Source of the DNA: an uncultured bacterium
GTDB taxonomy: Bacteria; Bacillota_I; Bacilli_A; RF39; UBA660
Reading direction: 5' to 3'
Assembly: GCA_949292245.1 (NCBI GenBank)
Contig: CASEYV010000002.1
Span: 16,150-80,149, forward strand
Length of the DNA stretch: 64,000 bases
Below, piece after piece: positions 1,749 to 59,137 of this stretch; the stretch's first letter is position 1; every line of letters starts with the position of its first letter. A model generated the notes under the pieces. It was not told the DNA's origin. It saw nothing but the letters and a program-made list of their open reading frames with translations, and searched no databases. A program made the position numbers and the translations under genes.

Positions 1749-2056
1749 TTCAATACCTCACTAAAAAATCGATATGCAAATCATTACATACCGTAACATT
1801 TTCAACGTCCATTTTCCATATATCCTATTTACTTCCATCTCTATTTAAACGGTATACCAACAAAAAACTTATAAAAACCTATAACAAAAAAAACACAAAT
1901 AAAACGATATACAACAAAAAAACCCAAAAACCACCACCCCCATATATATCCCTAAACACATTTTCCTATTTTTTTATCTCACACACACAAAACGACGTAC
2001 AAAACAAACTTATATATATTCTACTAAACAAATACATCAACTAGGAGTGATAAAAA

Positions 2057-2407: not shown

Positions 2408-2500
2408 CCCACCAACCAAAAACCTTATATACCATGAGCCACATATTAACCATTACAAATCAATGTGTGTCTACCAAGAACACATTAAAGGAGGATAATT

Positions 2501-2899: not shown

Positions 2900-4068
2900 A
2901 ACGATATATGGAGAAAAAAGTATGATAAGAGTATTTGAAGCGTTTGCGGGTTATGGTAGTCAAAGAATGGCATTGCGTAACATCGGAATTGAATTTGAGG
3001 TAGTTGGTATCTCAGAGATAGAGGGCGATGTTATTCAATCATATGCTGCGATTCATAGTGATTTTTTGGAAAAAAGGGAACATATTGATAGCTATGTGCC
3101 TGAAGACAAAGAAGAAATGATTTCTTATTTGGAAGAAATTAATGTTCCATTAGATTACAAAACTTTTGAAAACAAGGCTAAAAAGCTTAGACTGCCAAAA
3201 TTAAAAGATATGTACTTAGCAAACAAACTGATTAACAATTATGGAGATATACAAAGAATAAATCCTACAACTTTACCTGATTTTGATTTGTTCACATACT
3301 CATTCCCTTGTCAGGATATATCTGTAGCGGGATATCAGTGCGGATTAAATGAGGATTCTGGAACCAGGTCATCATTACTGTGGGAATGCTGTAAGATTAT
3401 TGAAACTAAAAGACCCAAATATCTGATGATGGAAAACGTTAAAAATCTTGTTGGGAAAAATCATAAAGATAATTTTTTGAAATTTTTAGATTATCTTGAA
3501 AGTTTAGGTTATAAAAACAGCTGGGCTGTTTTAAATGCCAGGGATTATGGTGTTCCTCAAAATAGGGAACGAGTTTTCTGTATCAGCGAGCTTGAAAGCA
3601 AAAGAGATTTTGTTTTTCCAGAACCGACAGAATTGAAATTCAAACTTGATGATATTCTTGAGAAAGATGTCGATGAAAGATATTATCTGAACAATGGTCA
3701 AGTTATGGATAAACCTATTAAGCAGGAGTATAGCTATTGTTTGGACTCCAATTACTGGAAAGGCACCACACTTCAAAGTTTTTTAAAAAAGCATAGAAGA
3801 CAGCTTGTAACTGACAGGGTCAATGAATCTGGGCAATATGTACCAAGAAGGCTTACTCCAAAAGAAACATGGAGGCTGATGGGTGTTAATGATGAAGATA
3901 TTGAAAAAGCAAGCCAGTTGGTAAGCAACACAAGTCTTTATAAACAATCTGGAAACAGTATTGTTGTTCCAGTTCTTGAAGCTATATTCAAACAATGGTT
4001 TATTGAGATGCATTATATGATGAATCTATAGATATTTTAAATGCTATTAAAAAATAAAACGATATATG
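2890..4068 (+). repeat. Perfect 21-bp direct repeat TAAAAAATAAAACGATATATG (2890-2910 and 4048-4068) flanking the first C5 methyltransferase
   Basis: Direct comparison of both copies. Confidence 0.9.
2922..4031 (+). CDS. dcm: DNA (cytosine-5) methyltransferase, orphan
   Basis: Motifs FAGYG, FPCQ, MENV, PQNRER, QSGNS. Confidence 0.95.
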   Translation: MIRVFEAFAGYGSQRMALRNIGIEFEVVGISEIEGDVIQSYAAIHSDFLEKREHIDSYVPEDKEEMISYLEEINVPLDYKTFENKAKKLRLPKLKDMYLANKLINNYGDIQRINPTTLPDFDLFTYSFPCQDISVAGYQCGLNEDSGTRSSLLWECCKIIETKRPKYLMMENVKNLVGKNHKDNFLKFLDYLESLGYKNSWAVLNARDYGVPQNRERVFCISELESKRDFVFPEPTELKFKLDDILEKDVDERYYLNNGQVMDKPIKQEYSYCLDSNYWKGTTLQSFLKKHRRQLVTDRVNESGQYVPRRLTPKETWRLMGVNDEDIEKASQLVSNTSLYKQSGNSIVVPVLEAIFKQWFIEMHYMMNL

Positions 4069-4083
4069 AAAAAAAGTGATACC

Positions 4084-4395
4084 ATGACTAACCTAACTCA
4101 ACTAATACTAATATTCGAGGAAAAGTACGATGCAGAATGGACCGACAACATACAATACAGCTACTCACACGAATCATCAGAAATAGACTTCATCATACCC
4201 ATAGAATCAATACCAAACCTACTAACAGACATCAGCAAAATCAAAACCACATCAATGTTCGAAATAAATAAAACAATAATAAAATGCATATACGAAGAAG
4301 AGGAATACTATATATCAATAGACATAAGTACAATAAAAAAACTCTTAAACGATATACAAAAACAAACCTTTATATGTGGAGGAAAAAATGACTAA
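4084..4395 (+). CDS. Hypothetical protein
   Basis: ORF in array; start after AGTGA RBS-like site. Confidence 0.7.
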   Translation: MTNLTQLILIFEEKYDAEWTDNIQYSYSHESSEIDFIIPIESIPNLLTDISKIKTTSMFEINKTIIKCIYEEEEYYISIDISTIKKLLNDIQKQTFICGGKND

Positions 4396-4564
4396 AACAA
4401 ACACCAACCACTTTTGGATTTACGAAAGAATAAAAGAAATAGATGAAGAAATAGCTCAAAAGAGGAAAGAAAAAGCATTCCTAGAATCTCTATTACAAAA
4501 AGATTCTCCATGCATATTCAAATCAAAAACTTCAGATACATTATTTTTTAACAAAAACTATTAA
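4388..4564 (+). CDS. Small hypothetical protein
   Basis: GGAGG RBS; overlaps upstream stop. Confidence 0.65.
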   Translation: MTKTNTNHFWIYERIKEIDEEIAQKRKEKAFLESLLQKDSPCIFKSKTSDTLFFNKNY

Positions 4565-6332: not shown

Positions 6333-8198
6333 AAACGATATATAGGTGAAAAATATGTCAAACTCATTAATAGAAGAATTGCCTAAAATTATAAGAAAAG
6401 GCAGGAAAGAAGCAAATAAAATATTAGAAGGTTTATCCGAAGATAGCAGATTAACTTTACAGACAAATGAACTAGTTTTGCCATCTAAAGATGAGGCAGG
6501 ATATTTTGTAAATTCAAATGAAAAAGTATTAGATAGTCAAAAAGCTAATAAATTGATTTATGGTGATAATTTATTTATTATGCAAACTTTATTAACAGGT
6601 GATGAAACAACTCCATCCATGAAAGGAAAAATTGATTTAATATATATTGACCCACCTTTTGATTCTAAAACAGATTATAAAATCAAAACTAAATTAAAAG
6701 ACACTACTATAGAACAATTTGCATATTCTGATACTTGGAAAAAAGGGACTATAAGCTATTTGGAAATGATGGTTCCACGTTTAATTTTAATGAAGGAATT
6801 GCTATCTGAAAATGGAACTATTTATGTTCATATTGATTGGCATGTAGGACACTATGTAAAAATTATGATGGATGAAATCTTTGGAAGAGATAACCTTATG
6901 AATGAAATTGTTTGGTGCTATAAATCAGGTGGAGCTTCTACAGCTAAAGGATTTGCAAAGAAGCATGATGTTATTTATGCATATAATAAGTCAAATAATT
7001 TTATTTTCAACAATATTAAAGAAAAATCTTATATGGGTATAGGATATACTACTGGAAACAAAAATGTTACATTATATGATGATAATGACGGCAAAGGCCC
7101 ATATACATTAGTGAATGTTAAAGATTGGTGGACAGATATTGGAATGATTGCAACATCTAAGGGAAGGCTTTATGCTACTCAAAAACCAAAAGAGCTTCTA
7201 GAAAGAATTATCTCAGTTTCATCAAATGAAAATTCAATAGTTGCAGACTTTTTCTGTGGTTCAGGTACAACTGGTGCTGTTGCTGAAAAATTAGGCAGAA
7301 GATGGATAATGTCTGATTTAGGAAAACCTGCCTGTATGGTTACTAAAAAAAGATTAATAGACCAAAAATCCATTCCTTTTCTATATCAATCAATTAGAAA
7401 TTATCAAAAGGAACAATTCAAACAATCAGAATTTAAAACCATCAGCGACTTATCTCATGCTGTTATGAATTTATATGGAGCCACACCATTTAATGATAAT
7501 GATAACTTAGGTTACATAAAAGATTCAAAAACTTTAGTTTATGTTGATTTTCTTTCTAAATTAACTAGTCATAATACATTAATTAAAGCACAAAAATTAA
7601 GAAATACATATAAAGGGGGGTGGAATAAAGTAGTTATATTGGGGTGGAATTTCGTTCAGGATATTAGTCAAATTATTATTGATTTAAATGATTCTAATCT
7701 TGAAGTTTTAGCTATACCACATAATTTATTAGAACAACTTAAAATAAAATCTAAAACTAATAAATTAATAAAATCTGGCAATTTAAGACTTTCATCTCTA
7801 CAACATCTAACTGTTAAAAAACCGACAATCGAAAATTATAATGAAGAATTAGAAACTTTAACAGTTGAATTAGATAATTATGTTTTATTATCTCCTGAAG
7901 CTTTACCATTAAATAAAAAAAATAAAGAGAAAATATCCGAAATAATAGATAACGACCCATTATCTTTAATTGAATATTGGAGTATTGACCCAGATTATGA
8001 TGGAAAAATATTCCGTAGCAGATGGCAAAATTATCGTGGAAACATTGCAAATGATAATCCTTATAAAGTTACTAAATATGTAAAAATTAATGTTCCTAAA
8101 CTCAATAGAAATAGAGTAATCTGTGTAAAAACAGTTGATATATTTGGGTTTGAAAATACTATTACAATAAAAATAAAATAAAAACGATATATAGGTGA
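6329..8198 (+). repeat. Perfect 21-bp direct repeat ATAAAAACGATATATAGGTGA (6329-6349 and 8178-8198) flanking the Mod-like methyltransferase
   Basis: Direct comparison of both copies. Confidence 0.9.
6355..8181 (+). CDS. mod: Type III Mod-like beta-class N6-adenine (or N4-cytosine) DNA methyltransferase; no Res partner seen
   Basis: LIYGDN, YIDPPF, TQKP, DFFCGSGTT; long C-terminal extension. Confidence 0.9.
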   Translation: MSNSLIEELPKIIRKGRKEANKILEGLSEDSRLTLQTNELVLPSKDEAGYFVNSNEKVLDSQKANKLIYGDNLFIMQTLLTGDETTPSMKGKIDLIYIDPPFDSKTDYKIKTKLKDTTIEQFAYSDTWKKGTISYLEMMVPRLILMKELLSENGTIYVHIDWHVGHYVKIMMDEIFGRDNLMNEIVWCYKSGGASTAKGFAKKHDVIYAYNKSNNFIFNNIKEKSYMGIGYTTGNKNVTLYDDNDGKGPYTLVNVKDWWTDIGMIATSKGRLYATQKPKELLERIISVSSNENSIVADFFCGSGTTGAVAEKLGRRWIMSDLGKPACMVTKKRLIDQKSIPFLYQSIRNYQKEQFKQSEFKTISDLSHAVMNLYGATPFNDNDNLGYIKDSKTLVYVDFLSKLTSHNTLIKAQKLRNTYKGGWNKVVILGWNFVQDISQIIIDLNDSNLEVLAIPHNLLEQLKIKSKTNKLIKSGNLRLSSLQHLTVKKPTIENYNEELETLTVELDNYVLLSPEALPLNKKNKEKISEIIDNDPLSLIEYWSIDPDYDGKIFRSRWQNYRGNIANDNPYKVTKYVKINVPKLNRNRVICVKTVDIFGFENTITIKIK

Positions 8199-11252: not shown

Positions 11253-12194
11253 ATGAATAATTCTTTAAAAAAACCTAAACTTAAATTAATGCCAGTTGGA
11301 GAAGTTAAATATAAACAAAAAGACTTTTTGAAATGTCCTTTTAATTATATTGGTGGAAAACATAAAATACTCCCCCAATTATTTACTGCATTTCCAGAAA
11401 ACAATGATATTTTCCTAGACATGTTTGGTGGAGGATTCAATGTTGGAATTAACAGCAATGCTTCTAAAATCATCTATAATGACCAATTAACTCCTTTAGT
11501 TGAATTATTTAAATATCTTCAAGACAATTCATGCGAGGATATTATAAATTATATTGAAACCACAATTAAAGATAACAATATTAGAAAAGATGAAAAAGAA
11601 GGGTTTCTTCAATTTAGGAATCAATACAATCAATCTGAAGAAAAATTCCCTTTAGATTTATACGTATTAGTTTCATTCTCATTTAATTATCAATTCAGAT
11701 TCAATAATAGTGGTGAATACAATAGTTCACATGGAACTAACCGTAGTTCTTTTACAAAGAACATGAAAGAACGATTAATACAATATATCAATATTATTCA
11801 TGAAAAAGATATAATATTTTTAAATAAAGATTTTACACAGTTAGATTATTCTATTTTAACTGAAGATAGCTTTGTTTATTGCGACCCTCCTTATTTGATA
11901 ACTACAGGTTCATATAATGATGGTAATAGAGGTTTCAAAAACTGGACCATAAAAGAAGAAAAAAATTTATTGAAATTATTATCAAAACTTGATAAAAAAG
12001 GAATTGATTTTGCATTATCTAATGTAACTATTCATGATGGAAAACAAAATGATTTATTACTTGATTGGATTGAAGCAAATGAATTTACTGCATTAGATAT
12101 TAATTCAGATTATAGCAACTCTAATTATCATAAAAAAAATAAAGATAAAGAAAAAAATACAGAAGTATTAGTAATTAATTATTCTTTTAAATGA
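11253..12194 (+). CDS. Dam/D12-class N6-adenine DNA methyltransferase, orphan
   Basis: PFNYIGGK, DMFGGG, YCDPPY, ALSN, EVLVINY. Confidence 0.92.
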   Translation: MNNSLKKPKLKLMPVGEVKYKQKDFLKCPFNYIGGKHKILPQLFTAFPENNDIFLDMFGGGFNVGINSNASKIIYNDQLTPLVELFKYLQDNSCEDIINYIETTIKDNNIRKDEKEGFLQFRNQYNQSEEKFPLDLYVLVSFSFNYQFRFNNSGEYNSSHGTNRSSFTKNMKERLIQYINIIHEKDIIFLNKDFTQLDYSILTEDSFVYCDPPYLITTGSYNDGNRGFKNWTIKEEKNLLKLLSKLDKKGIDFALSNVTIHDGKQNDLLLDWIEANEFTALDINSDYSNSNYHKKNKDKEKNTEVLVINYSFK

Positions 12195-15887: not shown

Positions 15888-16191
15888 AAGAGATATACAA
15901 ATGATAGCACAACATTTAACGATGTTAAATATAATGTATACTGATGAAGAAATAGCATATTTAAGAAAATTAAAAGAAGTATTACCACTATCAATATACG
16001 AAATAGTTGATACTATAGATTTACAGAACGATGGTTTTTTTGATGATATTACAGTAGTAATACAAATTCCATATCACTATGGAGAATATGCAAAAGCAAT
16101 ACTAAAAGATTACAACCCTATTATAAATTATGAAGATTATGGTATAGAATTTCATATTCCAATAATGAATATTAAAGGTGATACAGAGTGA
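15880..16191 (+). CDS. Hypothetical protein
   Basis: Overlapping operon ORF. Confidence 0.65.
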   Translation: MLERDIQMIAQHLTMLNIMYTDEEIAYLRKLKEVLPLSIYEIVDTIDLQNDGFFDDITVVIQIPYHYGEYAKAILKDYNPIINYEDYGIEFHIPIMNIKGDTE

Positions 16192-17234
16192 TAAATGGAA
16201 TTTCATTGTTTGCTAATGTTGGAATAGCTGAAACATACTTTAAAGAAAACGGCATCAATATCGTTGTAGCTAATGAATTATTGGTCGAAAGATGTAGAAT
16301 TTACAAACATATATATCCAAGTTGTGATATTATATGTGGTGATATATCTGAAAATACTATTTTTAATAAACTTGTTGAGTTATATAATTTAAACGAATGT
16401 GATTTTTTAATTGCAACTCCACCATGTCAGGGCATGAGCCAAGCTGGAAAAATGGACCCTGATGACCCAAGAAATTCATTAATAATTCATACAATAGAGT
16501 TCATTAAAAAAACACAACCATCAAACATCATAATAGAAAACGTTCCACAAATTCTCAAATTCTCAATAAAAATAAACGATGTTGAAAAAAAAATTTTAGA
16601 CTACATCGTTGAAGAATTAGAACCATTAGGATACAACATAAATTACGATGTATTAAATGCTGCCGACTACAACACTCCACAAAATAGAAAAAGAGCCATC
16701 TTTCTCATATCAAAAATTTCTAAATGGGAATTCCCAGAAAAACAACCTGAAATAACAGTAAGAGAAGCTATAGGAAACCTTCCATCATTAGAAAGCGGAG
16801 AGGTATCTAATATTCCACGTCATTATGCTAAAAACCATGCAAAAAGACATATAGTATGGATGAAATACACTCCAACTGGAAAAACTGCCTTCGATAACGA
16901 AATATATTATCCACAAAAAGATGGCAGAAAAATTAAAGGATATAGAACAACATATAAAAGAATGGAATGGGATAAACCAGCACCAACAATAACAATGTGT
17001 AATGGTTCAATCTCATCACAAAACAATGTACATCCTGGTTATAAATTAAATGATGGAACTTACTCAGATGCAAGAGTTCTATCAATATTAGAACTATTAA
17101 GACTAACAGGACTTCCAGATGACTGGAACTACCCAGAAAATATATCAGATAACTTATTAAGAAAAATCATCGGAGAAGGCTTTCCACCCCATTTCGCAGC
17201 ATCTTTATTAAAAACAATGCCAATAACCAATTAG
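16188..17234 (+). CDS. dcm: Second DNA (cytosine-5) methyltransferase, orphan
   Basis: SLFANVG, TPPCQ, IENV, PQNRKR, IGEGFPP. Confidence 0.93.
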   Translation: MINGISLFANVGIAETYFKENGINIVVANELLVERCRIYKHIYPSCDIICGDISENTIFNKLVELYNLNECDFLIATPPCQGMSQAGKMDPDDPRNSLIIHTIEFIKKTQPSNIIIENVPQILKFSIKINDVEKKILDYIVEELEPLGYNINYDVLNAADYNTPQNRKRAIFLISKISKWEFPEKQPEITVREAIGNLPSLESGEVSNIPRHYAKNHAKRHIVWMKYTPTGKTAFDNEIYYPQKDGRKIKGYRTTYKRMEWDKPAPTITMCNGSISSQNNVHPGYKLNDGTYSDARVLSILELLRLTGLPDDWNYPENISDNLLRKIIGEGFPPHFAASLLKTMPITN

Positions 17235-43531: not shown

Positions 43532-44275
43532 ATGATTTTAGATAATAATGCTATGTATGCTAAATACAAGGATATTATTCCTGAAGATAATTTTGAAGAT
43601 GTAGGAATTTCTTTGACTGTAGGTAAGGTTAAAGAGTTCGTATATAAGAAAAATGATTATGTTTGTGGAAATGATGAAGTTTCTGAAGTTTGTACAAAAG
43701 AATTAACTCCAGAAACTGATAATAATGGAAAAAAATTTTTTATTTTACAACCATCACTTCAATATATCGTTGTAGTTAAAGAACATTTACCTGTGGTTGA
43801 TGGTATCGTTAGGATAATTAATTCTTTAAACGATATATCCAAAGTGGGTTTAAATGTTATACCTCAAGTTACTGATTCAAGTATTGATACACCCGTTGAA
43901 GTTATTGTTGAAAATAAGACACCCGCTCCAATATTTTTAGAAGCAGGTTCAAGATTTTGTAAATTAGTGGAAACACAAACTGAAGAACCAATTTCTAACA
44001 TCGTTTTTTTAATTGGTGGAGAGGATAATTTACCTCTTGAAGGTGCTACTGTTAAGTTGAAAAATACAGTAACTGATAAAGAGTATTTATCTACTGAATC
44101 TGATGCATATGGTTTAGCAAAAATAAACGGTATTCTTTATGGTGATTATAAAATGACAATTCATCACGAAGATGAAGAATATGATAATGGTGTTATAACA
44201 GTTGCTGAACCATTAATGACAACAATTTATATTCCAAATATAATGATGATTGGTAATAATGAGATGATAGAATGA
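43532..44275 (+). CDS. Degenerate dCTP deaminase/dUTPase-fold domain fused to a prealbumin/Ig-like domain
   Basis: GISLTVG, LQP...VKEHLPV, ENKTPAPIFLEAGSRFCKLV; C-terminal PLEGATVKL...SDAYGLAKINGILYGDYKMTI. Confidence 0.6.
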   Translation: MILDNNAMYAKYKDIIPEDNFEDVGISLTVGKVKEFVYKKNDYVCGNDEVSEVCTKELTPETDNNGKKFFILQPSLQYIVVVKEHLPVVDGIVRIINSLNDISKVGLNVIPQVTDSSIDTPVEVIVENKTPAPIFLEAGSRFCKLVETQTEEPISNIVFLIGGEDNLPLEGATVKLKNTVTDKEYLSTESDAYGLAKINGILYGDYKMTIHHEDEEYDNGVITVAEPLMTTIYIPNIMMIGNNEMIE

Positions 44276-46305
44276 ATAGAATAAAAGTATTACACACTAA
44301 TGGAGAAATTGAAGATTTTAAACCTCGTTTAATAGGACAAACAATTATTAAAGAAACTGGAATTAGCGAAGAAAAAGCTAATAAAATTCAAGGAAGAATT
44401 ATTAGTAAAATTCGTAATTTAAAGAAAGATGGGTTAGATGAAATTTCTACTAATGCTATTAGAGCAGAAGTATCCTCTCAATTGTTGAAAGAGAAAGAAT
44501 TTGAGGCTGAAGAAGATAATAGAAGCTTAGGTATGTCTAGAGCAGAGATTTATGATTTGATAAAGAACCCAGATAGGTCTAATGCAAATCAATCACCATC
44601 TTCTGAATCAGTTTTAAAATATAGTAATGATAAAGTATTTAAACAAATAGCATTAATGGAAGTCCCTAAGGATTTAAGAGAAGCTCATTTGAATAAATTT
44701 ATTAAAATTCATGATTTAGAAGGTTTAGGTGCAAATATAAGACCACATAATTGTTTTATTTTTGATTTGGATTGGTTTAAAAGAAATGGGTTAATTATAG
44801 ACCCTAATGATGTTAATGCTGCAAGGGCACATCCAGCTAAACATTTATCTGTATTATTAAACCATGCTTTACAAGCATTACAAGTTAATTCTCAACAAAC
44901 AACTGGGGGAAGTGGGTTTGCTGATTTCTCAGTTAAAATTGCTCCATTTGTTAAAGATATGCCATACTCTGAAATCAAACAAAATATGCAAAACTTCTTT
45001 TATAATTCATCAATGATACTTATCAGTAAAGCACAAGTTGTTTTCTCAAGTATTGGTGTTGATATAGCTATTCCAGATTATATGAAAGAGATGGACGCTA
45101 TTGGACCAGGTGGTATTGTTGTTGGAAAATATAAAGACTTTGAGAAAGAAAATGATGCAGTTGTTCAAGCTATTCTCGAAGTTATGGAAGAAGGATGGGG
45201 AGAAAAAGCTAATCCTACTCCGTTTTTATTCCCAAATGTTATTTTTAACTTAAATAAAGAAGTAGTCAATAATCCTGACAAACAAGATGTATTACTCCGC
45301 ATACATAAGTACATTGCTAAATATTGGACACCATATATCTGCAATATTGATATAGAAGGCTCTAATGGTGCCTCTGCTGTAATGGGGTGCAGATCTAGGC
45401 TTAATAACAATTTAAAGACAGTAGAGGACTCTATTTACAATTGTGGGAACTTAGCTTATTATACTATAAACTTGCCTAAATTAGGTTATTTAGCCAAAAG
45501 CAAAGATGATTTCTTTTCTTTACTTGATAAATACCTTAAAATTGTAGATGAAGGATTATTATACCGTAGAGATATGGTTAAAAAAGCATTAGATGAAGGA
45601 TTGATGGATTTCCATAAACAAAAAGATAAAAAAACTGGTAGACAATTATACGAGATTGAAAGACAAACATTAACATTTGGTCTTGTTGGTATTAATGAGT
45701 GTTTATTAAATCTTTATGGATATGGTGTTAAAGGACATATTGAAGATGCTGAAGAGATATTACAATACATATCTAATCATGCGAAAGAATTTGCTAAAGA
45801 GAATAATGTTAGAACATCAGTTATTATGTCCCCTTGTGAATCAACAAGTTCTGAATTTGCTGATTTTGATAAAGAAAAATATCCAGATATAATCGTGAAT
45901 GGTAAAAAAGGAGCTTATTATTATACTAATGGACATGATATTCCAATTGATGATGAGATTGATTTTACTGAACACTTAGAAAATGCTTGTAGATTACAAA
46001 AATATGCAACAGGTGGAGATATAGCTCATATTTGGAGTTCTGGTCAATGCGACCCAGAAGCTTTATTAAAAACAACAAAAATGGCTATTGAAAATGGTAT
46101 AGGATTTTTAAGTTATTCTGGAGCATTTACTGTTTGTAAGAACTGTGGTGCTACTTATAGTGGAAAGCTTGAGCAATGTGAAACCTGTGGAAATGATAAT
46201 TTAGTTGTATATGAAAAAATATGTGGTTATATGGTTCCATTAACAAAATGGTGTGATGGTAGACTTCAACAAGAACAAGATAGATATTTACAACAAATAA
46301 AATAA
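44272..46305 (+). CDS. nrdD: Anaerobic (class III) ribonucleotide reductase with ATP-cone
   Basis: IHDL, HNC, MGCRS, GNL, PCEST, YYTN, CxxC...CxxC, KICGY glycyl-radical motif. Confidence 0.95.
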   Translation: MNRIKVLHTNGEIEDFKPRLIGQTIIKETGISEEKANKIQGRIISKIRNLKKDGLDEISTNAIRAEVSSQLLKEKEFEAEEDNRSLGMSRAEIYDLIKNPDRSNANQSPSSESVLKYSNDKVFKQIALMEVPKDLREAHLNKFIKIHDLEGLGANIRPHNCFIFDLDWFKRNGLIIDPNDVNAARAHPAKHLSVLLNHALQALQVNSQQTTGGSGFADFSVKIAPFVKDMPYSEIKQNMQNFFYNSSMILISKAQVVFSSIGVDIAIPDYMKEMDAIGPGGIVVGKYKDFEKENDAVVQAILEVMEEGWGEKANPTPFLFPNVIFNLNKEVVNNPDKQDVLLRIHKYIAKYWTPYICNIDIEGSNGASAVMGCRSRLNNNLKTVEDSIYNCGNLAYYTINLPKLGYLAKSKDDFFSLLDKYLKIVDEGLLYRRDMVKKALDEGLMDFHKQKDKKTGRQLYEIERQTLTFGLVGINECLLNLYGYGVKGHIEDAEEILQYISNHAKEFAKENNVRTSVIMSPCESTSSEFADFDKEKYPDIIVNGKKGAYYYTNGHDIPIDDEIDFTEHLENACRLQKYATGGDIAHIWSSGQCDPEALLKTTKMAIENGIGFLSYSGAFTVCKNCGATYSGKLEQCETCGNDNLVVYEKICGYMVPLTKWCDGRLQQEQDRYLQQIK

Positions 46306-46953
46306 GTGATAAAAATGGATTATAGTATATATGAAACTTCATTAGTTGATTATGATGGTGAAATATGTTTATGTTTAAACACAGGACAATGTAGTAATAA
46401 TTGCTTTTATTGTTATAATAACCCAAATGATATTCCTATTATGGAATTTGATACGGCGAAATCTATAATCAATAAGAAAAAACAATTTGTTACTGCTGTT
46501 TCACTTACTGGTGGAGAACCTTTACTAAATCCATCTTTATCTAAAATTTTAGAATATGCAAAAAAACAAAACTTAAAAACAAAAATTGATACATCTTTAT
46601 GTTGTGATATAAATGATAATGTATTAAAAAATATAGATTTTATTAATATTTCTATAAAAAATTACAAATATCTATTAAAAATACTACCAAAAATTATTTA
46701 TATAACAAAATACCAAAATATTGTTGTAAATTTAAATATAGTTTATCATCCAGAGTATATTTCGTTTTATGAAATAAAAAAAATAAACAACAAATTAAAA
46801 CAGTTAAATAAAATTGTTTTAGTTGTTACTGCTATGGACATATCTAATACAAAATATGACAAAGAGGTTACAAAAAAAGATTTATTAAAATTAAAAGAAG
46901 TATTAGATATTAACTATATTTTTTATACAAAAGAAGATGGTAAATTTAGATGA
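46306..46953 (+). CDS. nrdG: RNR-activating radical SAM enzyme
   Basis: SLVDY, CSNNCFYC, TGGEP; adjacent to nrdD. Confidence 0.9.
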   Translation: MIKMDYSIYETSLVDYDGEICLCLNTGQCSNNCFYCYNNPNDIPIMEFDTAKSIINKKKQFVTAVSLTGGEPLLNPSLSKILEYAKKQNLKTKIDTSLCCDINDNVLKNIDFINISIKNYKYLLKILPKIIYITKYQNIVVNLNIVYHPEYISFYEIKKINNKLKQLNKIVLVVTAMDISNTKYDKEVTKKDLLKLKEVLDINYIFYTKEDGKFR

Positions 46954-47449
46954 TATTATGAAAAATAAAAAAACAAAGTATGGTAGAGTTGGGATTTCTC
47001 CCGATGGATATTATATTGTTACTTCAGTAAAAGAAGGGAATTGTCAAAAGCTTTTGCATAGATTAATATATGAAGAAGAATTTGGCAAAATTCCCGATGG
47101 GTATCATATTCATCATAAAGATGGGAATAAATTGAATAATAATATTGATAACTTAGAATGTTTATCTCCATCAAATCATGGTAAAACCCATAAACATAGT
47201 ATAGAAACACGTCATAATCTTAGTAAAATGAAGACTGGAACATCACGTCCTACTAATTCAACTGGATATTATAGAGTTTTTACAGAAAAAGATAAAAAAT
47301 ACAAACAAGGATTTTGTTATGTTTATGAGGTTGATACATCTAGACTAGATGGAAAAAGAAAAAAAAAGAAAATCAGAAGAGTTAATTTATCTGATTTAGA
47401 GAAAGCTGTTAAAGAAGCAGGATATGAGTGGAAAAAGATTGATGAATAA
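46937..47449 (+). mobile_element. HNH homing endonuclease with C-terminal AP2-like module
   Basis: LHRLIY, IHHKDGNKLNNNIDNLECL, H. Confidence 0.85.
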
Positions 47450-47545
47450 TTAAACATTGAAGCTTATGCTTCGTCTTTTTTTTTATTTTTTAGAGCCTCA
47501 AACAAAAAGTTTAAATAGTATAACAGCCATATTATACTATGGTGT

Positions 47546-48709
47546 TTGAAAATGTTTGAGAATGAAATAAATGGAGTAAGTGGTGATAATATAATTTTTA
47601 TTAGAAATAAAGATTATATTGGGCCAGTTACTATAAAAGATTTTTATAATAATTACGATATAAAAGACTACCAAACTATATATTTTGATTTTGATGAAAG
47701 AAAATATATGTGGTCAAGTATAGAAGATGTAGTGAAATTTGAAGAATTAGATACAGTAAACATTGTTTGTCATAGAGGATATTCTATTACTTGCAGTCCT
47801 AATTTTAATTTTTATGATTATAAAACAAAAGACCGTAAAAAATCACCATATGGATTAATTTCAGCTTCTGATTTGGAACAAAAAAGTAGAATAATTAATC
47901 ATAAAAATATTCGTGTTTTAGATAATGTTTATAATGAAAATAGATTTGGAACTTTAATTGGGGTTTTATTATTATCTACTACTAAGATTATAAATCTTAA
48001 TGGATATATTTATATTGAAGTTGGTTTTAAAAACGATGAAGATGCGGTTTATTTTAAAAATATTTTAGATGATTTAGATATGAAATATGCAGAAAAAGAA
48101 AAATCTGCATCTTTTGATTATTATATTGGAGATAATACCGTTAATAAAGAAGAAGATAGAAATAGTTTTTATATTGGCTTAGATAATATTGGAAATAAAT
48201 ATTATGATATTTTGAATGAACATATAGAAGATAATAATATAAACGATATAATTCCATTTTGTTATCAAGAAGATTTATTATTAGGCGTATTTTCTGGATT
48301 ATTAAATATTGGTGGAACAATGCCGTTTATTAAGAAAGAAAAGAAGATTAATATTAGATTTAATTTTTATGATGAAGACGTTTTATCATTATTTTATAAT
48401 ATATCTTTTTTATTAGGATTTAATCCAAGTACATATAATTATAATAAAGGTGTTGGCTCACTAAAAACAATATCTTTTCCTCCTGGTAGAGTATACCATA
48501 TTTTAGATAAAATTAATTTAAAAAAATCATTTAGAGAAAAGATTGAAGAAAATGAATTTAAGGATTATAGAAAACAATCTATTAATGGATTATGCACAGT
48601 AAAAGAGATATTTAATAGTAAAAAACAACCTGTGTATAAAATAAAAATTGAAAATGACTCTAATAATTGTATTGTAAATAACATACTTGTGGATTGGGGA
48701 TTTAAATGA
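47546..48709 (+). CDS. Free-standing intein-derived protein (Hint + LAGLIDADG) with catalytic residues lost
   Basis: Blocks A, B, C, E, F, G recognisable but degenerate; no extein. Confidence 0.7.
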   Translation: MKMFENEINGVSGDNIIFIRNKDYIGPVTIKDFYNNYDIKDYQTIYFDFDERKYMWSSIEDVVKFEELDTVNIVCHRGYSITCSPNFNFYDYKTKDRKKSPYGLISASDLEQKSRIINHKNIRVLDNVYNENRFGTLIGVLLLSTTKIINLNGYIYIEVGFKNDEDAVYFKNILDDLDMKYAEKEKSASFDYYIGDNTVNKEEDRNSFYIGLDNIGNKYYDILNEHIEDNNINDIIPFCYQEDLLLGVFSGLLNIGGTMPFIKKEKKINIRFNFYDEDVLSLFYNISFLLGFNPSTYNYNKGVGSLKTISFPPGRVYHILDKINLKKSFREKIEENEFKDYRKQSINGLCTVKEIFNSKKQPVYKIKIENDSNNCIVNNILVDWGFK

Positions 48710-49806
48710 ATATAGAAGATGTACCTATTGATAATGTAAAAAATATTTTATTAATTGAACCAAATTATCCAACTAGTGAAGAGAATAAATATATACCTAT
48801 TGGTTTATTAAAAATCGCTTCATATTTTAGGTCTAAATCAAAAAATGTTTTTTTTACGAAATTTAATAAAAAGATTAATAATAAAGGTTATAATCCCGAT
48901 TTAATATGTTTATCATCTTACTTCACTTATAGAGCAGCATATACAAAAGAAACTGTTGATTATTGTAGAAAATATTTTCCAAATGCAAAAATTGTTGTTG
49001 GTGGAATATATGCTATACTTTTACCAGAACATTGTAAGGAATATACACAATGTGATTATGTAATCACAGAAACATCAAAAGAAGCTGAAGAATTAACTCC
49101 AGCATATGATTTGGTTCATACTAACCATCAAGTTTTATTTACAACAAGAGGATGTGTTAGAAGATGTGATTTTTGTTCAGCATATAAAATAGAACCAAAA
49201 TGGACATGTAAAAAAACAATAAAAAACGAAATATTATTTAAAAATGTTTTATTTTATGATAATAATTTATTAGCAAATCCATATATAGAAGATATATTGA
49301 ATGAATTAATTGAACTTAAAAAACAAAGAAAAATAAAATACGTTAGAGCACAAAGTGGACTTGATGCTAGAATATTAAGTAAAAAACCTCATCTTGGTAA
49401 ATTATTAAAAAAAGCAGGTTTTAAAGGTATTACTTTATCTTGGGATGGTGATTTTGAAGACTTAAAGTACATTAAAAAAGCAGTAAATATATTAACTGAA
49501 AGCAAATATAAATCAAAAAACATAAGTATTTTTATGTTATTTAATTATTATAATATGAACTATGAAGATATTGAGAGAAAAAGACTTGAATGTGCTAAAC
49601 TTGGAGTTAAAGCAATAGCATTAAGATACGTTCCAATGGATTGGACAAGTGAGGATATATATATTTCTCCAAATTGGACTGATAAAGAAATCAGAAAAAC
49701 AATGGCAAATCGTACAATGCATAATAGATGTATTAATTACGATATAACAGAACATGGTATTCCATATATGCATGATACATGGAAATTATATGAATTTCAT
49801 GAATAG
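48706..49806 (+). CDS. Cobalamin-binding radical SAM protein
   Basis: PIGLLKIAS, IVVGGIYA, TRGCVRRCDFC, DNN, GLDAR. Confidence 0.88.
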   Translation: MNIEDVPIDNVKNILLIEPNYPTSEENKYIPIGLLKIASYFRSKSKNVFFTKFNKKINNKGYNPDLICLSSYFTYRAAYTKETVDYCRKYFPNAKIVVGGIYAILLPEHCKEYTQCDYVITETSKEAEELTPAYDLVHTNHQVLFTTRGCVRRCDFCSAYKIEPKWTCKKTIKNEILFKNVLFYDNNLLANPYIEDILNELIELKKQRKIKYVRAQSGLDARILSKKPHLGKLLKKAGFKGITLSWDGDFEDLKYIKKAVNILTESKYKSKNISIFMLFNYYNMNYEDIERKRLECAKLGVKAIALRYVPMDWTSEDIYISPNWTDKEIRKTMANRTMHNRCINYDITEHGIPYMHDTWKLYEFHE

Positions 49807-50457
49807 GTGATGTTAATGTTTAGAGTTGTTAATGGAAAAAATTTAACTGATGAAGAATATCAAATATTTGTTTCAAAATACAATAATAATACAAAAGTTA
49901 AAGATATAATAAAAGAAATGGATTTAACTTATAACCAATATAGAAAATTATTAAAAATGGGTGTTGAAAATAAAGATGTAATAAAAAGAAAACATAGTAA
50001 TAAGAAAAGAAGAGGCGAAAATACTAATGCTAAATATTATTACTATAATAAAGCAAGTAATAGATATGTCGTAAAAAATCCTATAACAAGATGTACTAAA
50101 AGTTTTCTTAACGAAATAGATGCAAAAAATTATGTAGAAAAAATTAGAGAAAATAATTGGAAGGACATCGGACCTATCAGAAGAAATGTTCCATATAATA
50201 GCCCAAATGCTTTCTTAATAGAAGTAGAAATAGAATATAATAAAAATAATACAGGATATTTTAGAGTTAAAGATTCTATATATCCATATAACAAACAAAA
50301 ATGTTATGAATATAGGTATCGTGATAAATCTAAAAAATATCATAAACTATTTGCTATGACTATTGAAGATTTAAAAGAAAAAGTTTTATCAAATAACCTT
50401 CCATGGATGTCTAGAAGTGAAATGAAAGATTATTTAGATAAAGAAAAAAAATTATAA
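49807..50457 (+). CDS. Basic putative DNA-binding protein with AP2-like modules
   Basis: HTH-like N-terminus; NNTGYFRV...IEDLKEKV...LPW shared with the HNH gene. Confidence 0.6.
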   Translation: MMLMFRVVNGKNLTDEEYQIFVSKYNNNTKVKDIIKEMDLTYNQYRKLLKMGVENKDVIKRKHSNKKRRGENTNAKYYYYNKASNRYVVKNPITRCTKSFLNEIDAKNYVEKIRENNWKDIGPIRRNVPYNSPNAFLIEVEIEYNKNNTGYFRVKDSIYPYNKQKCYEYRYRDKSKKYHKLFAMTIEDLKEKVLSNNLPWMSRSEMKDYLDKEKKL

Positions 50458-53400
50458 AATATTTTTTAATTTTTTTATTCTAAGATTTTCTATTTTTCCA
50501 ACTCCTTTATTTAATCTTAACATTAAAAATGGATTTTCAATATTTTCATTTACATAAGGTAAATGTTTAAAGTTATCTTTTAGATTTGTACTATTTATAT
50601 TAAAAGCCAAACACGCTTTTTCATTCATTAAATTATCATGTTCTTCTTTTAATAATTCATAATCCATTAACGGTGTATTATAATGTTTGATTAAATAATA
50701 GTCATTATCTGAAGGAGAACTTAATTTTATTGAGAACCAATATTTTTCACCAGGAGTTAGATTATCTACATATATATCATACTTAACCATATTACTGTTT
50801 TTTGTTAAATTTTTATCTACCCATCCAACTCCATGGATTTCTTTAATGATAGCACCAGGAATTGTTTTATTATTTCTATGGATAGCTATAGTTAAGTTTT
50901 CATCAGGAACACCAACAAAACCATTTGTAAATAATTCAATTGATGTTATATTATCTTTTTCAGCAGTAAATGATTGATATAATGTATCTTTTAATTCAAA
51001 TCCTTTATTATAACTACCATCTAAATTAGTTTGAGAAACTTGTTCTTGAACAACTGTAGGAATTTCGTTAAATATTAAACCTTGAATCAAAGGATTATCA
51101 ATCTCATCTCCTGTAATAGCTAAACCTTTCGTATCTTGATGATAGGATATAACATCTGATTCTGTATTCTTATATGTAATATTTAAATTAATAGCAAATA
51201 TTTTAATATATTCCCCCATTAATAAATCTTCAAATTGCATATTAATTAATAAACCATATTTATAATCAATTGCACGACTTTTATCTTCTAATACAGGAAC
51301 ATTATAAACTTGTTTTTTGTATATATCAAAATTATATGGGTTTAAATATACATTATCTACTTCGTTTTGTTTTTTACTAAAAGTAACTACAATTCTTGTA
51401 TCATATATTTCAATTAAATCATTTAATTGATTAAATCTATAATTAAGACTTAAAGTATCAGTTCTAAATACCGTTTTAAATGGTAATTGTATTTTTTTAT
51501 AGAAGAAACCAGTTTCAATTTCTGTTGTGTTCATATCAGCATAAACTAATTCGCTTGAAAGCTGACTAAACATTTTAACATTACTACCATGATTATATCC
51601 TTTAATTATAAATTCAACATATTCAACTTCAGTAAATGGGTATGCTTGGTAACTAAATTCAGATAATGTAGTCCAATATGGTTTCCTAATTTTATAAACG
51701 GTATTATCATCATAAATATAATCTAAATTAGGATTTATTCTTTCATTGAAATCCATAGTATCTCTAAATTGTTGCATAATTTCTTCTGTCGGACTATTTG
51801 TTGAAGATGCTATACTTAATTTATCAATTAAATCAATACTTGATAATCCATTAATTTTATGATTCTCAATAAATTCTGGGGTATATATAACTTTCCTTTC
51901 AATATCGTTTATGTTTATAGTATTATTTTTGTTCCTTTGATGGCTAACTTTAGCACTTTTTCTGATATTTGTTTCAGCAGATAATTCTATATCAATATTT
52001 TCAATAACGGCATTATCTGGAATATCTAATTCACTTACATAAAGATTTAAATCTGGTACTTCAACTAATTCTTTATCAATATTGGAAATTAAAGTATATG
52101 AAGAATTATTTTCATCAATTCTATGTAAATTAATCCATGAATTATCATTTGTTAAAATTTCATATTTAACATTTTCATTATATTCTTCATGAATTGGTGT
52201 ATTAATTGTAGCTTTTCTATTTGCATTATATGAACATCTTAAAACATTTGAAGCTAATAGGTTTGATTGAATAACAAAATTAACATCGTTTTGATTTTTA
52301 ATGTTTGAATAATAATCAGTAATTCTTTTATTTCTTATAAAGTATTTAATTTGATTATTATTATCAATTATTTCATGATGAATATATTGTAGTTTTCCAT
52401 TATGTTGAATATATACAGTAACAAGGTCTTTACTTTCATTAATTGGTTCAACATCAATAGATAATCCTTCAACGGTTGCATACCCATCTTTACATTCAAC
52501 GATATTGCTTCTTGTATTTTTTGTAACACTTATATAATGTTTTCCATAATAACTGTTATATGTTGCAGAAATAACAAAATCATAATTTTCAGTTTGAAGT
52601 GCTAATCCAGTTTCAATATCATCTTCTTTAAATATTAATGTTGTTCTAACAGCATCAATATTCATACCATCATCTACAATAGTATAATTTGTATCAGAGT
52701 TTTTAACAACATCTTTTTTAATTATCCATGGTACATCTTGAACAATACTTTCCCAATATGTAGAAATTGGTTCAATTTCATATGTAGGTTCACTTGGTTG
52801 TGATAATTCAGGATAAGTAAATTCTTCTGAATCTGGAATATTTTTTTCATATGAAAATGAATTAAAGTTATCAGAATATATAATACTTTTAATAGTTGAG
52901 CTTAATGATAAATCATTAATAACTTCTGTTTCATAAACGGTATGGGATAAAATATTATCTATCATGAAAGCTAAATTATTTCTATGACTATATTCTAATA
53001 ATGGTTTTATATCAATAACATCTAAACTAGGATTATGTATAAAATCTTCTTTATTATTAGTATTATATCCAGAGTTTTCAAATATAAGATTTCCATCATC
53101 ATCAATACCATACTGGTAGGAACGAATATCGTATAATATTTTTAAGATTTCTCCAGCCTTTAATTGGGTATATGGTTTAAATACTTGATTAAATCTAAAT
53201 GTTGGATAATGGGTAAATTCTTCAGAAACGATATATCTAATTAATCCTTTCATACCATATGGCTTTGTTTTATTCATTAAAACTTCTATTTCATCATTAT
53301 CTAATATAAAGAAGTTTGATGGAATATCTTCTAATGGTAAATCCATATAAAAAACACCAGAATCAAGATAAACATCTTTAATTACATATGAATATCCTTC

Positions 53401-57500: not shown

Positions 57501-58328
57501 TTTTGTATTCAATATAGGACCTTCTATAGCATTATCTGGATTAATCATTTCCAGCTTTATTATTTGCTCTAATGTTGTTCTACATGGAGAGTCTTCTCCA
57601 TCTTGAGTTATAATTTCGTTGTTTTTTGAAACATCAAAAATAACTGGTTCTAATGCTGGTTCATATTCAATTTCAATAAATATGTTCCTTAATCTGATAA
57701 AACCAGGGTTAGTATTTTCATTTGGCCCGTATCTAACCCTAAGACTAAAATCTGATTTTCTAACATTTTCTTCAGTTAAATCTGGGTCTACAAACATTGT
57801 GTTTCTTGTAATCCAACCAGCTGCGGCTTTAGGTCCATCAAGATGATTGTCTTGTGTTAATCTATTATTTTTAGTTGAAAAATATAATTCTACAAGTCTA
57901 AACTTAGGCCCCCAATTATTATAGATTTTTCCATTTGAAACATCAACACCACGTTGGTCTTGTTCAATATTAGCTCTAATATTTTGAATTTTGATACCCT
58001 TTTCAAGTTTAGAAAAATCAAAATAAAATTCTAATTCAGCTGGTTTATTGTAAGTACCACAAACACCAGCTATAGGACATGTATTACGGAATCCCTTAAT
58101 GTCATAAAAGGTTTTATAGTTACATTGTTTTGTTGCTGGATACCCACATTGTGCATACTCTCCATTCTTATTTTCGCCTATAAGATTTTCTAAATTAAAA
58201 TACCCATGATGACGCGGATTTGCACTACCAAATCTACACCAGCTTTGGTCTACTTCGCCAGGAGCTAATCTTGTACCAACTTGTGGTTCTTCAACCCTAA
58301 CTGGATAGAATCTCATCGTTTTAGTCAT
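54510..58328 (-). CDS. Large virion protein with Ig/DUF11-like domains
   Basis: Beta-rich; in structural operon. Confidence 0.6.
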   Translation of the reverse strand: MTKTMRFYPVRVEEPQVGTRLAPGEVDQSWCRFGSANPRHHGYFNLENLIGENKNGEYAQCGYPATKQCNYKTFYDIKGFRNTCPIAGVCGTYNKPAELEFYFDFSKLEKGIKIQNIRANIEQDQRGVDVSNGKIYNNWGPKFRLVELYFSTKNNRLTQDNHLDGPKAAAGWITRNTMFVDPDLTEENVRKSDFSLRVRYGPNENTNPGFIRLRNIFIEIEYEPALEPVIFDVSKNNEIITQDGEDSPCRTTLEQIIKLEMINPDNAIEGPILNTKPSDEQIDIGLVNEYLEQIEASVIPDNIVVKKKKIDYTNRQVIFEITDKSGIVGDKSITYEIKNKTSCRANFKSKLPDPAMFDIVQRYVKDYPNGSVKEFNPDKAYITLLSGCYRTVEIYIDGITQDNDKFTYTRKSTETSSDNFNKAFYEKMVSLTCGNHTLYFVVDGVKTQEKRVTIDSHSFTLSLIVPSGLKQNKQDRYQKIKILPVYTTYKGDDYTVVVKDESRSLKPEENHPVETTYNDIAKKGYIEHEIDLYYGGTFQLQVSVPTQCRQNKITYTLNITPQHRQYYDELFVRVEDGTSVKNDYLAVWEGDNIPYPIKADNIELISSLDDLRVCSDDAYTSLSTLGYATLRLKNTKDYDMKGIKIELNPIIEEDGERKNAASEFIDKDGMFYGFYDKFYILNPYLENSVEVRNLTEDDDIIDEENVYLYINTLFANEQMDILIPFECRFEKTVDLEFLTFENPIKFRTLDSCDIDEVELKDHITLRTVDSCLVKLDITGETDLNEAVNCCYFTDLTYKIENIDTIDLLSSVQLAIENSIEMNPYKYTYHNENYEFTADGNSINQDTGETGPLLFIKNIETKTLPVSKKLINVYYINNNEIVKDTVRSQNDGRIVYNFTLPADLGSEYTMEQLMNKFFIFESEETIDFGYASVGANIVKKDVQIKINDIVDIETNSSVSELTKGKKYKIYGSLKNDIDDFINDEYLKIYYLNEDNQSIRLGDRITTTINNDSNFMFTIIPDVDIDKTMFVNNYLNITYNGSAFYNSAQIGYFISSQPATKDKVELKYQNTYRRYGPGDVVTFYLDIESKLSVAKSKIQFISDLSDRKDEVTISYRICKKDSANKCLNDIYKTTFKTDDINLVKNEISKNIYCGIDTEMELYAVIVDKIIEQNNFNFIYVTVKNGLKPNKDVKIVISLGEYDGDEKCTGAYEFIDITTQSGDYGIDVNNNVLYYIIDEMDSYTEDRIIIKVKSRELGESIVTVEGYDYMHKEEP

Positions 58329-59137
58329 ACTGATACCTCTACTAATTGCTTCATAATATTATCAATCCTAAATAAATCATTAATTTCGTTTTTAAGAATT
58401 TCATATACTTTATTAATATTAATAATCTTTATTTTAATATTTTTATTAATTAATTCTTTTAATAAATCATAAAAATTAGATTTGTATATCTTTGTTTTGT
58501 TATAATTTTCTTGTTTTTCGTATTGAAAACCATTATTTACTTTGGCAATGTTCTTTACACCACATTCATTACAATTAGTTTTCAATAACATAGCTATTCT
58601 ATCAGAAAAAAGTAAGGTTTTTTTATATTTATCCATATCCCATATATTAAATTTATACCCATCTTTATTAATTTTTCTCTCTAGCTCATCAATAGTTGTT
58701 GCATTTTTGGTATAATTTTTAACTACAAAACGGAATCTATATCCACTTTTATATGTATTTGACTTAATCACACTTACATGTTCAATTCCAGTTTTATTTT
58801 TCCCCTCAATACATGATATAGATAATTTATCAAAATTTATATTTTGTCCACCAGATGTCAAATTATACCCGTATTGATTATTATTTGATTGAAAAATATC
58901 AATATACCGTTTTTCTAATGAATCTAACAAATAATAAGGAATATTTTTTTTAATAATTTTAAAAACGAAATTATCTTCACCATATTTATTAAAACTATTT
59001 TGTAAATGTAAATTATGATGTGTTTTATTTTTTAGCTTATTTAGATGTTCTTTCTTTCTTCTCTCTAAATCAGATGTTTGCCCTATATAAATCTTTCCAT
59101 TAACTTGGTTTTCTATCATGTATATTCCAGACGTCAT
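58325..59137 (-). mobile_element. GIY-YIG homing endonuclease
   Basis: SGIYMI...KIYIGQ...R...H, LQNSFNKYG, E, GYN. Confidence 0.9.

Follow-up and report, generated by a model that had tools for sequence, protein, structure and literature searches.

How does an intein come to stand as a gene of its own in what looks like a phage genome, and in what capacity is it kept there? These questions are raised by one gene in a 64,000-nucleotide stretch of DNA, hereafter the window, from an uncultured bacterium (GenBank assembly GCA_949292245.1, contig CASEYV010000002.1):

47552..48709, + strand: intein-derived gene, free-standing, 385 amino acids (P0001), recognised by its open reading frame, translation, homology and fold

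The initial annotation took this gene for a free-standing, fully disarmed intein. Its homologues lead to the inteins that interrupt NrdD, the anaerobic ribonucleotide reductase, and by this evidence the gene encodes an entire LAGLIDADG intein, made up of Hint and endonuclease domains and descended from those at the NrdD glycyl-radical site. The best explanation of the evidence as a whole, to which we assign a probability of roughly 0.45, is that a disarmed NrdD intein has been kept in a phage as a predicted non-cleaving nucleic-acid binder.

Homology to the inteins of NrdD

The open reading frame is intact, as had been claimed, and has its own start and stop: ATG at 47552, as in all homologues (MFE...), with TTG at 47546 as an alternative, and TGA at 48709. 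Searches with the 385-residue protein gave no match in Pfam, PHROGs, NCBIfam or PADLOC; none was obtained among the PDB sequences, queried with the single protein and with a profile, or by tblastn against 50,697 phage records. Since Pfam, PHROGs, NCBIfam and the PDB sequences offer no match, the protein would be annotated as 'hypothetical'.

An exhaustive phmmer search of 1.84 billion representatives returned six matches, namely one free-standing protein (384 residues, 84% identical) and five NrdDs, in which the matched stretch is an insert with the Pfam domains Intein_splicing and LAGLIDADG_3. The NrdD inteins are 35–38% identical to the protein from end to end. In four of the five (P0003–P0006) the insert lies at ...YDR|C...(A.N)|(C)TGY, directly ahead of the glycyl-radical Gly-Tyr, and the match spans query residues 10–380 at 35–36% identity (E 6.5e-59 and 7.6e-49). 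The search for the closest active intein and its host gene, proposed with the initial annotation, thus ends at the glycyl-radical-site inteins of NrdD (best E 6.5e-59). A word-indexed search added five stand-alone homologues and one NrdD fragment among proteins of near length, and 13 matches among longer proteins, all 13 being NrdDs with Intein_splicing and LAGLIDADG_3 domains. No shorter protein matched, including fragments of 30–210 residues, in 5.8 billion clusters. At the DNA level, scans of the viral, metagenome and genome contig collections yielded no relative; none of 200 genomes of the family matched, and 400 genomes of the order gave only two weak partial matches.

A maximum-likelihood tree was built from six stand-alone forms, 11 active site-matched inteins and, as outgroup, one intein from another site; it excludes six NrdD rows that were fragmentary or near-duplicates, as well as all later-found variants. 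In it, the stand-alone forms make up one clade (100/100) on a long stem of 2.05 changes per column, and this clade groups with the active P0004 and P0003-like inteins (85/96), with P0005 and P0006 outside. The root of the tree is uncertain owing to the long branches. By definition the protein is an intein no longer: the fold and the homology are present, but the host protein and the splicing residues are gone.

Loss of the splicing and cleavage residues

Altogether 37 free-standing variants are known, as 90%-identity clusters of 23 (P0001 type) and 11 (P0011 type) and three singles. The 29 that were seen, all distinct, were compared with 10–11 active NrdD-site inteins, and the disarmed motifs that the initial annotation had read in block A, block B and the LAGLIDADG helices recur throughout. 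Thus, position 8, where the active inteins have Cys1, is Gly in 29/29 variants, whereas 11/11 active inteins begin C[FV][AGS]GDT. Block B reads S82-P-N-F85 as opposed to T-P-N-H, with F85 in every variant and His in 10/10 active inteins. Both LAGLIDADG helices have lost the Asp at their ends, which all ten active inteins possess: S142 ends helix 1 and G254 ends helix 2, again without exception among the 29. The block-F His (position 371; His in 9/10 active inteins) is replaced by Asn or Asp. Finally, the terminal Asn is missing from the free-standing variants, whose tails after NNIL(V/T) run VDWGFK, VDWGFE, VDWGF, VDWEI, VNWEI, VN or TCLNNA(V/I)RIEDILGY before the stop, whereas the active relatives end ...AEN|C. 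The terminal change had been given as HN to DW. The loss of Asn stands, but the ancestral C-terminus was, to judge from the active relatives, probably EN, so that the change would be one of EN to DW in a tail that varies.

With Cys1, the block-B and block-F His, the terminal Asn and both Asp lost, neither splicing nor DNA cleavage is expected, and established intein and LAGLIDADG chemistry predicts that the protein can do neither. As far as the aligned variants tell, the disarming is older than the divergence of all of them. That the protein is still an enzyme, cutting DNA or processing protein with non-canonical residues, would suit its intact fold and the selection on its gene (see below), yet we regard this as very improbable, for all 29 variants lack a carboxylate at both LAGLIDADG helix ends, and neither position 1 nor the C-terminus has a nucleophile.

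The statement that there are no exteins also holds. The gene is a separate reading frame with its own start and stop, its 29 variants span 376–385 residues, and a tblastn search of the region 46950–51000 with the flanks of NrdD gave a best E value of 0.09, with no relics of exteins or of the nrdD 3' end. The 'GF' in the tail was considered as a relic of the extein 'GY', and this reading was dropped because other variants end in WEI or VN and because the codons concerned hold a possible ribosome-binding site of the next gene.

Fold and domain layout

For structure prediction, AlphaFold was run with an 18-row alignment; a single-sequence run was unusable, with a predicted local distance difference test (pLDDT) score of 38. 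The resulting model (pLDDT 82.7, predicted template modelling score 0.86) is that of a Hint plus double-LAGLIDADG fold, in line with what the initial annotation anticipated for this check. Its top PDB matches in Foldseek are PI-PfuI (E 2.7e-15), the TliVMA and PhoVMA inteins and PI-SceI, followed by mini-inteins for the Hint part and by I-DmoI, I-Tsp061I, WhiA and the bI3 maturase for the LAGLIDADG part. A fold search of BFVD placed proteins of at least 489 residues, i.e., inteins within host proteins, at 49 of the top 50 viral matches, the remaining one having 358 residues. In the model, the LAGLIDADG helices span residues 131–142 and 240–254 and belong to the double alpha-beta-beta-alpha-beta-beta-alpha fold of LAGLIDADG endonucleases, and the layout of the protein is as follows:

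47573..47926, + strand: Hint N-terminal part, residues 8–125, with disarmed block A (G8) and block B (S82..F85) and the basic stretch YDYKTKDRKKSPY (88–100); from the alignment, pLDDT about 90
47927..48556, + strand: double LAGLIDADG domain, residues 126–335, with S142 and G254 in place of Asp and the basic hairpin IKKEKKINIRFN (260–271); from the alignment and Foldseek
48557..48691, + strand: Hint C-terminal part, residues 336–380, blocks F and G, with Asn for the block-F His and no terminal Asn

Variability per site is lowest in the Hint N-terminal part (0.27 changes) and highest in LAGLIDADG subdomain 1 (0.55), whose variable, acidic loop, modelled with low confidence, is missing from the P0011 type. 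No domain has been added beyond the intein-homologous stretch, since the 385 residues align end to end with inteins.

Selection on a disarmed protein

Was the gene kept, as the initial annotation had it, or is it decaying? The variants are 77–99% identical to the window copy and all 29 are full length, with length differences that stay in frame; neither a frameshift nor a stop was found among them. Of 361 ungapped columns, 129 show amino-acid replacements, which number at least 173 in all. Given that stops make up 8.9% of the protein-altering single-base changes available to the window's codons (7.5% with equal rates), the probability of seeing none under neutrality is about 1e-7. Furthermore, the replacements are conservative. 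Their mean BLOSUM62 score is +0.53, compared with −0.34 (standard deviation 0.14) for random single-base changes, and none of 5000 random draws reached the observed value; by the same measure NrdD scores 0.53, the radical SAM (S-adenosylmethionine) gene downstream 0.70 and the HNH endonuclease gene upstream 0.16. At the protein level, full-length frames, no stops and conservative replacements point to purifying selection rather than decay. In our reading of the variants, this selection is real, moderate in strength, and acts on a protein that was already disarmed.

Divergence was also compared across genes by pairing proteins with the same longest-contig size, which presumably lie on a shared contig. 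The percent identities to the window copies are:

contig 124784: intein-derived gene 94.8, NrdD 99.6, HNH 94.1, radical SAM 94.3
contig 125444: intein-derived gene 91.1, NrdD 98.7, HNH 92.4
contig 87451: intein-derived gene 84.9, radical SAM 86.3
contig 95531 (P0011 type): intein-derived gene 77.0, NrdD 98.2

On these paired contigs, the intein-derived gene diverges at about the rate of the radical SAM and HNH genes.

The P0011 type (P0011 and P0081–P0090; 376 residues) differs at its C-terminus, where ..NNILTCLNNA(V/I)RIEDILGY resembles the start of the radical SAM protein, MNIEDVP... Its 3' end thus seems to run into the former start of the radical SAM gene, the junction having been remodelled. 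The radical SAM 90% cluster has 16 members, and none of the 15 listed lies on a P0011-type contig. Since the intein-derived gene persists where this junction is remodelled, its role is probably not tied to the radical SAM enzyme.

The genomic neighbourhood

The window is AT-rich (GC 0.23–0.35) and belongs to contig C2 (107,674 bp, GC 0.277), one of 108 contigs in a genome bin of 1.69 Mb. C2 looks like a large tailed phage, in view of its several DNA methyltransferases, a helicase, an SbcD-like nuclease, a GIY-YIG homing endonuclease and a baseplate wedge protein. The genes and signals around the intein-derived gene are:

43532-44275: dCTP deaminase-like gene
44272..46305, + strand: nrdD, anaerobic ribonucleotide reductase, 677 amino acids, intein-less (Pfam NRDD, E 5.6e-119)
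46306..46953, + strand: nrdG-like activating enzyme, radical SAM (Pfam Radical_SAM, Fer4_12)
46937..47449, + strand: free-standing HNH homing endonuclease gene, between nrdG and the intein-derived gene (Pfam HNH_3, E 7.7e-19; PHROG HNH families; PADLOC HEase)
47458..47481, + strand: terminator-like hairpin followed by a T-run, upstream of the intein-derived gene
47510..47538, + strand: weak sigma-70-like match, TTTAAA-17-TATACT, 9/12 positions
48695..48700, + strand: TGGGGA in the last codons of the intein-derived gene, 5 nucleotides ahead of the next ATG (sequence read directly)
48706..49806, + strand: B12-binding radical SAM gene (Pfam B12-binding, E 3e-9, and Radical_SAM; phrog_9298, E 5.1e-31)
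49807-50457: open reading frame of 216 amino acids, after the radical SAM gene

The intein-derived gene thus lies 1.25 kb from the upstream nrdD, with nrdG and the HNH gene in between, and its stop overlaps the start of the radical SAM gene in ATGA. The TGGGGA is possibly the ribosome-binding site of the latter. The initial annotation placed a TATA box upstream, heading an operon with the B12 radical SAM gene. The operon part survives in a softer form, as the stop/start overlap makes co-expression plausible. The TATA box does not apply, because the genome is bacterial: the bin contains eight matches to sigma-70 region 2, a family that among the controls matched only the ten bacterial ones, and no match to the archaeal ribosomal protein L31e, which matched only the four archaeal ones. 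An archaeal host, with its TATA box, is therefore rejected. What stands at the place of the supposed TATA box is the weak sigma-70-like match of 47510..47538, and such matches are not enriched in the region (63 found, 68.5 expected from shuffles).

This setting bears on the idea that the gene is a spent selfish element, that is, a free-standing homing endonuclease gene of the WHO kind that cut the adjacent intein-less nrdD, became fixed, lost its activity and is now a passenger whose frame stays open through youth or through its coupling to the radical SAM gene. Such an origin would suit the distance of 1.25 kb from the ancestral target site, a region rich in homing endonuclease genes (HNH at 46937-47449, GIY-YIG at 58325-59137), the ATGA overlap, a divergence as fast as that of the HNH gene, and a C-terminal tail that is free to vary. 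The intein-like WHO genes of yeast, which PMC7282813 describes beside their target, would be the precedent. Coupling to a downstream gene, however, selects against stops and not against missense changes, and the replacements are nevertheless as conservative as those in NrdD. Likewise, the disarming substitutions and two basic patches (see below) are invariant in 29/29 variants, the P0011 type retains an intact gene although its junction with the radical SAM gene is remodelled, and the gene has no relics of nrdD beside it, in contrast to WHO clusters with their target-gene relics. We therefore consider a spent element unlikely.

Several other features of the neighbourhood are recorded here. The HNH endonuclease and the 216-residue open reading frame have a C-terminal stretch in common (..STGYYRV..KKYKQGFCYVYEV.. 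in the former, ..NTGYFRV..NKQKCYEYRYR.. in the latter), which, as far as the two proteins tell, may represent a DNA-binding module that homing endonucleases share; the 216-residue protein gave no match to a nuclease domain. The GIY-YIG-type homing endonuclease gene (58325-59137, − strand; phrog_7168, E 1e-28) is wedged after two open reading frames of 1272 and 1352 residues in the structural region. Four DNA methyltransferase genes are located within 15 kb (2922-4031, 6346-8181, 11253-12194 and 16188-17234). By weak Pfam hits, the dCTP deaminase/dUTPase-like protein is fused at its C-terminus to a prealbumin-like (CarboxypepD_reg/SpaA) stretch, which is unusual. Rfam families and tRNAs are absent from the window. 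Finally, a search of sequencing runs listed 20 from nine studies (animal gut, manure, bioreactor; one RNA run with 9% of the words), from which we draw nothing about habitat or expression.

The empty intein site of nrdD

Is the neighbouring nrdD the target that the gene once served or now shields? The window NrdD is 37–41% identical to the exteins of intein-bearing NrdDs over long high-scoring segment pairs in BLASTP. Alignments to 15 of 16 intein-bearing NrdDs, 21 in all, stop at residue 649, the exceptions being P0005, which stops at 651, and P0007, with its intein elsewhere in the protein and an alignment that reaches 676. These stops place the cognate site at K649|I650-C-G-Y of the window NrdD, where it is empty:

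46216..46221, + strand: nrdD codons K649 and I650, whose boundary is the cognate intein insertion site, immediately ahead of the C-G-Y glycyl-radical motif

In the alignment, Ile stands opposite the +1 nucleophile. An empty allele, ..VTYDR|CTGYYLP.., occurs in an IMG/VR phage contig (L004) in the type of NrdD that elsewhere holds an active intein, and ..YDR|CTGYY is also empty in L005. With an occupied (P0003) and an empty (L004) allele, the site is polymorphic in that NrdD lineage. The NrdD cluster of the window has 24 members, and all 15 listed are intein-less and of 677 residues.

It could be proposed that the dead endonuclease guards a homing site, occupying the glycyl-radical site of nrdD, or another one, and shielding the intein-less allele from the inteins of co-infecting phages. 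This would be consistent with the empty cognate site in the phage's own nrdD, with the occupied and empty alleles of related NrdD lineages, by which homing appears to be ongoing somewhere, and with a scaffold and basic patches that are kept. The DNA at the site speaks differently. Only about 9 or 10 of the 24 nucleotides around it agree with the empty site to which the nearest active intein belongs (TAT GAA AAA|ATA TGT GGT TAT ATG compared with TAT GAC CGT|TGC ACA GGC TAC TAT), so that this intein would probably not cut the window nrdD anyway. In addition, the position of the +1 nucleophile holds Ile, the closest active intein is only 35–38% identical, and the intein-less state of all listed members of the NrdD cluster leaves no threat visible in the phage population. 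We give such a guard little credence.

Elsewhere in the bin, no active intein occupies the glycyl site of an NrdD: the host-like NrdD on contig C5 (794 residues) is intein-less, and that on contig C1 has its intein at another site. C1 (283 kb) may be a second large phage. Its NrdD, the third in the bin (C1:146000-152500, L015; open reading frame 1324-4512, + strand; 1062 residues), has a LAGLIDADG intein at the internal site CFSGDQ...GIITHN|C and an empty glycyl-radical site. The NrdD of L004 (5055-8096), a 139 kb phage contig, is interrupted for about 1 kb at a point equivalent to window NrdD residue 375, and this interruption may be another intein or an intron; the C-terminal site is empty. 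Two further loci of C1 involve inteins. On the minus strand of C1:108533-111775 (L008), an open reading frame ending in an N-terminal intein half (..HGCADYNTII.. ..LTGNHLVW..) is followed by one of 293 residues and by one starting with a C-terminal half (..YNHNFFANDILVHNS..). This arrangement looks like a 'fractured gene', a split intein with a free-standing gene between its halves, of the kind reportedly described in PMC2677866. At C1:135763-139200 (L007; open reading frame 358-2031, − strand), a mini-intein (Pfam Intein_splicing, 44 bits) interrupts the Cys-rich motif of a radical SAM/SPASM-like protein, ..NLHCCYC|VSGDT.....ILVHN|CHQLG..

A predicted non-cleaving nucleic-acid binder

Two patches point to what the scaffold might be kept for. 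The stretch YDYKTKDRKKSPY of the Hint domain is basic and invariant in 29/29 variants, as is IKKEKKINIRFN, the first hairpin of LAGLIDADG subdomain 2, which is more basic than its counterpart in active inteins. The Hint domain of PI-SceI supplies much of that protein's DNA binding. The two invariant basic patches suggest a fit with a nucleic-acid binder that does not cleave.

On the explanation that we prefer, an intein from the NrdD glycyl-radical site now forms a gene of its own in a lineage of roughly 100 kb phages of gut and manure bacteria. Its splicing and endonuclease residues were lost before the known variants diverged, after which purifying selection has held its frame and sequence. 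The folded Hint–LAGLIDADG scaffold would then act as a non-cleaving, sequence-specific nucleic-acid binder, most likely of DNA, contacting its target through the basic stretch of the Hint domain (88–100) and the basic hairpin of LAGLIDADG subdomain 2 (260–271). It would be co-produced with the B12-radical SAM enzyme encoded downstream, and would regulate phage genes or occupy a site.

Five points weigh against this explanation and temper our confidence in it. First, the isoelectric point is 5.3–6.1 in five of six variants, as opposed to 8.4 for an active relative, and this is unusual for a DNA binder. Second, variability peaks in LAGLIDADG subdomain 1, which ordinarily forms half of the DNA saddle and here has lost 19–20 residues in one lineage. 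Third, the gene evolves 5–10 times faster than NrdD at the protein level, the P0011 type being at 77% where its NrdD is at 98%. Fourth, the protein collection consists of gene calls, in which broken copies may be under-represented. Fifth, as a possible promoter there is only the weak sigma-70-like match.

Could the protein serve in some capacity other than DNA binding, with the Hint domain as a protein-binding or structural module (e.g., for the radical SAM enzyme or NrdD/NrdG) and the LAGLIDADG part as a spacer? The Hint N-terminal part is the least variable (0.27, as against 0.55 in LAGLIDADG subdomain 1), the protein is acidic overall, and its gene is translationally linked to that of the radical SAM enzyme, all of which would agree with such a role. 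LAGLIDADG subdomain 2 is conserved too, however, invariant basic hairpin included, and the gene is retained even where its junction with the radical SAM gene has been remodelled. To our knowledge, there is no precedent for a whole intein serving in this way, and we judge the proposal improbable. A maturase role was also considered and appears unlikely, as the window lacks Rfam families and C2 lacks group I introns, for which the sole match in the bin is on contig C27 and below the cut-off.

The binder reading can be carried a step further, though at this length it becomes rather unlikely: the phage would have domesticated the entire intein as a programmable-looking DNA-site binder that does not cut, which would either immunise a homing site against the inteins and endonucleases of competing phages or control genes of nucleotide metabolism, as the prokaryotic-virus counterpart of the HO/WHO and WhiA domestications.

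Relation to known systems

The nearest relatives, the NrdD glycyl-radical-site inteins (P0003, P0004, P0005, P0012 and their relatives), are homologous over the full length and have the same layout of Hint plus double LAGLIDADG. They are, however, in-frame inserts (..YDR|C...N|CTGYY) with their catalytic residues intact, whereas the gene described here is free-standing and has neither exteins nor those residues.

WhiA (DUF199) and the bI3 maturase are examples of a catalytically dead LAGLIDADG scaffold used for binding nucleic acid, as we propose for the phage protein, and both are found by Foldseek (WhiA, 8dy9, E 2.6e-5; bI3, 2ab5, E 2.8e-5). WhiA carries an additional C-terminal helix-turn-helix domain, and the bI3 maturase acts on a group I intron. 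Neither has a Hint domain, which in the phage protein makes up the remainder in place of a helix-turn-helix, and there is no match to Pfam WhiA.

Yeast HO and WHO, as presented in PMC7282813, are likewise stand-alone intein-derived genes for which splicing is not needed. The WHO genes lie just downstream of their target gene, according to the same paper, much as the intein-derived gene lies downstream of nrdD. HO and WHO are described there as active and fused to a zinc finger, unlike the phage protein, which has no extra domain, has lost both Asp and is accompanied by no relics of a target gene, such as the replaced 3' ends characteristic of WHO clusters. The PhoVMA intein (PDB 7qst; Foldseek E 4.6e-11) shares the intein fold and is reported to have an inactive endonuclease (PMC8966425). 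Inteins of this type still splice from their host protein, whereas the phage gene has lost splicing and has no host protein. In PMC3653736, homing endonuclease genes of phages (mobE and others) sit beside nrd genes, which again puts a gene derived from a mobile element among those of nucleotide metabolism. The mobE-type genes are of the HNH or GIY-YIG class and, in that text, presumed active, unlike the disarmed gene studied here. The same paper remarks, with data not shown, that in Lactococcus phage 949 hypothetical proteins between ribonucleotide reductase genes 'show traces of inteins'. That remark (PMC3653736) is the nearest precedent in the literature that we searched, where we came upon no fully disarmed, free-standing intein from any phage or prokaryote.

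The gene is comparable to the HO/WHO and WhiA domestications, and is a member of neither family, nor of the bI3 maturases. On the domestication reading it would be the first case known to us in which both intein activities were given up with the whole scaffold kept. A lead from the ESM Atlas, where several viral clusters of 300–456 residues carry LAGLIDADG_3 and sometimes Intein_splicing, suggests that free-standing intein-like proteins may be commoner than this one family.

Implications

In the usual view, inteins are parasites and nothing else, which go on homing or else decay and are deleted. The gene described here looks like a third outcome, in a virus: having departed from its host gene and given up both activities, the element was conserved thereafter. 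Its protein escapes the sequence-family databases, which is a warning for annotation. If the predicted DNA binding is real, the protein would be a natural Hint/LAGLIDADG scaffold that reads a site without cutting it, and would bear on how hosts recruit homing endonucleases, as in HO, WhiA and the maturases, and on the conflict between co-infecting phages.

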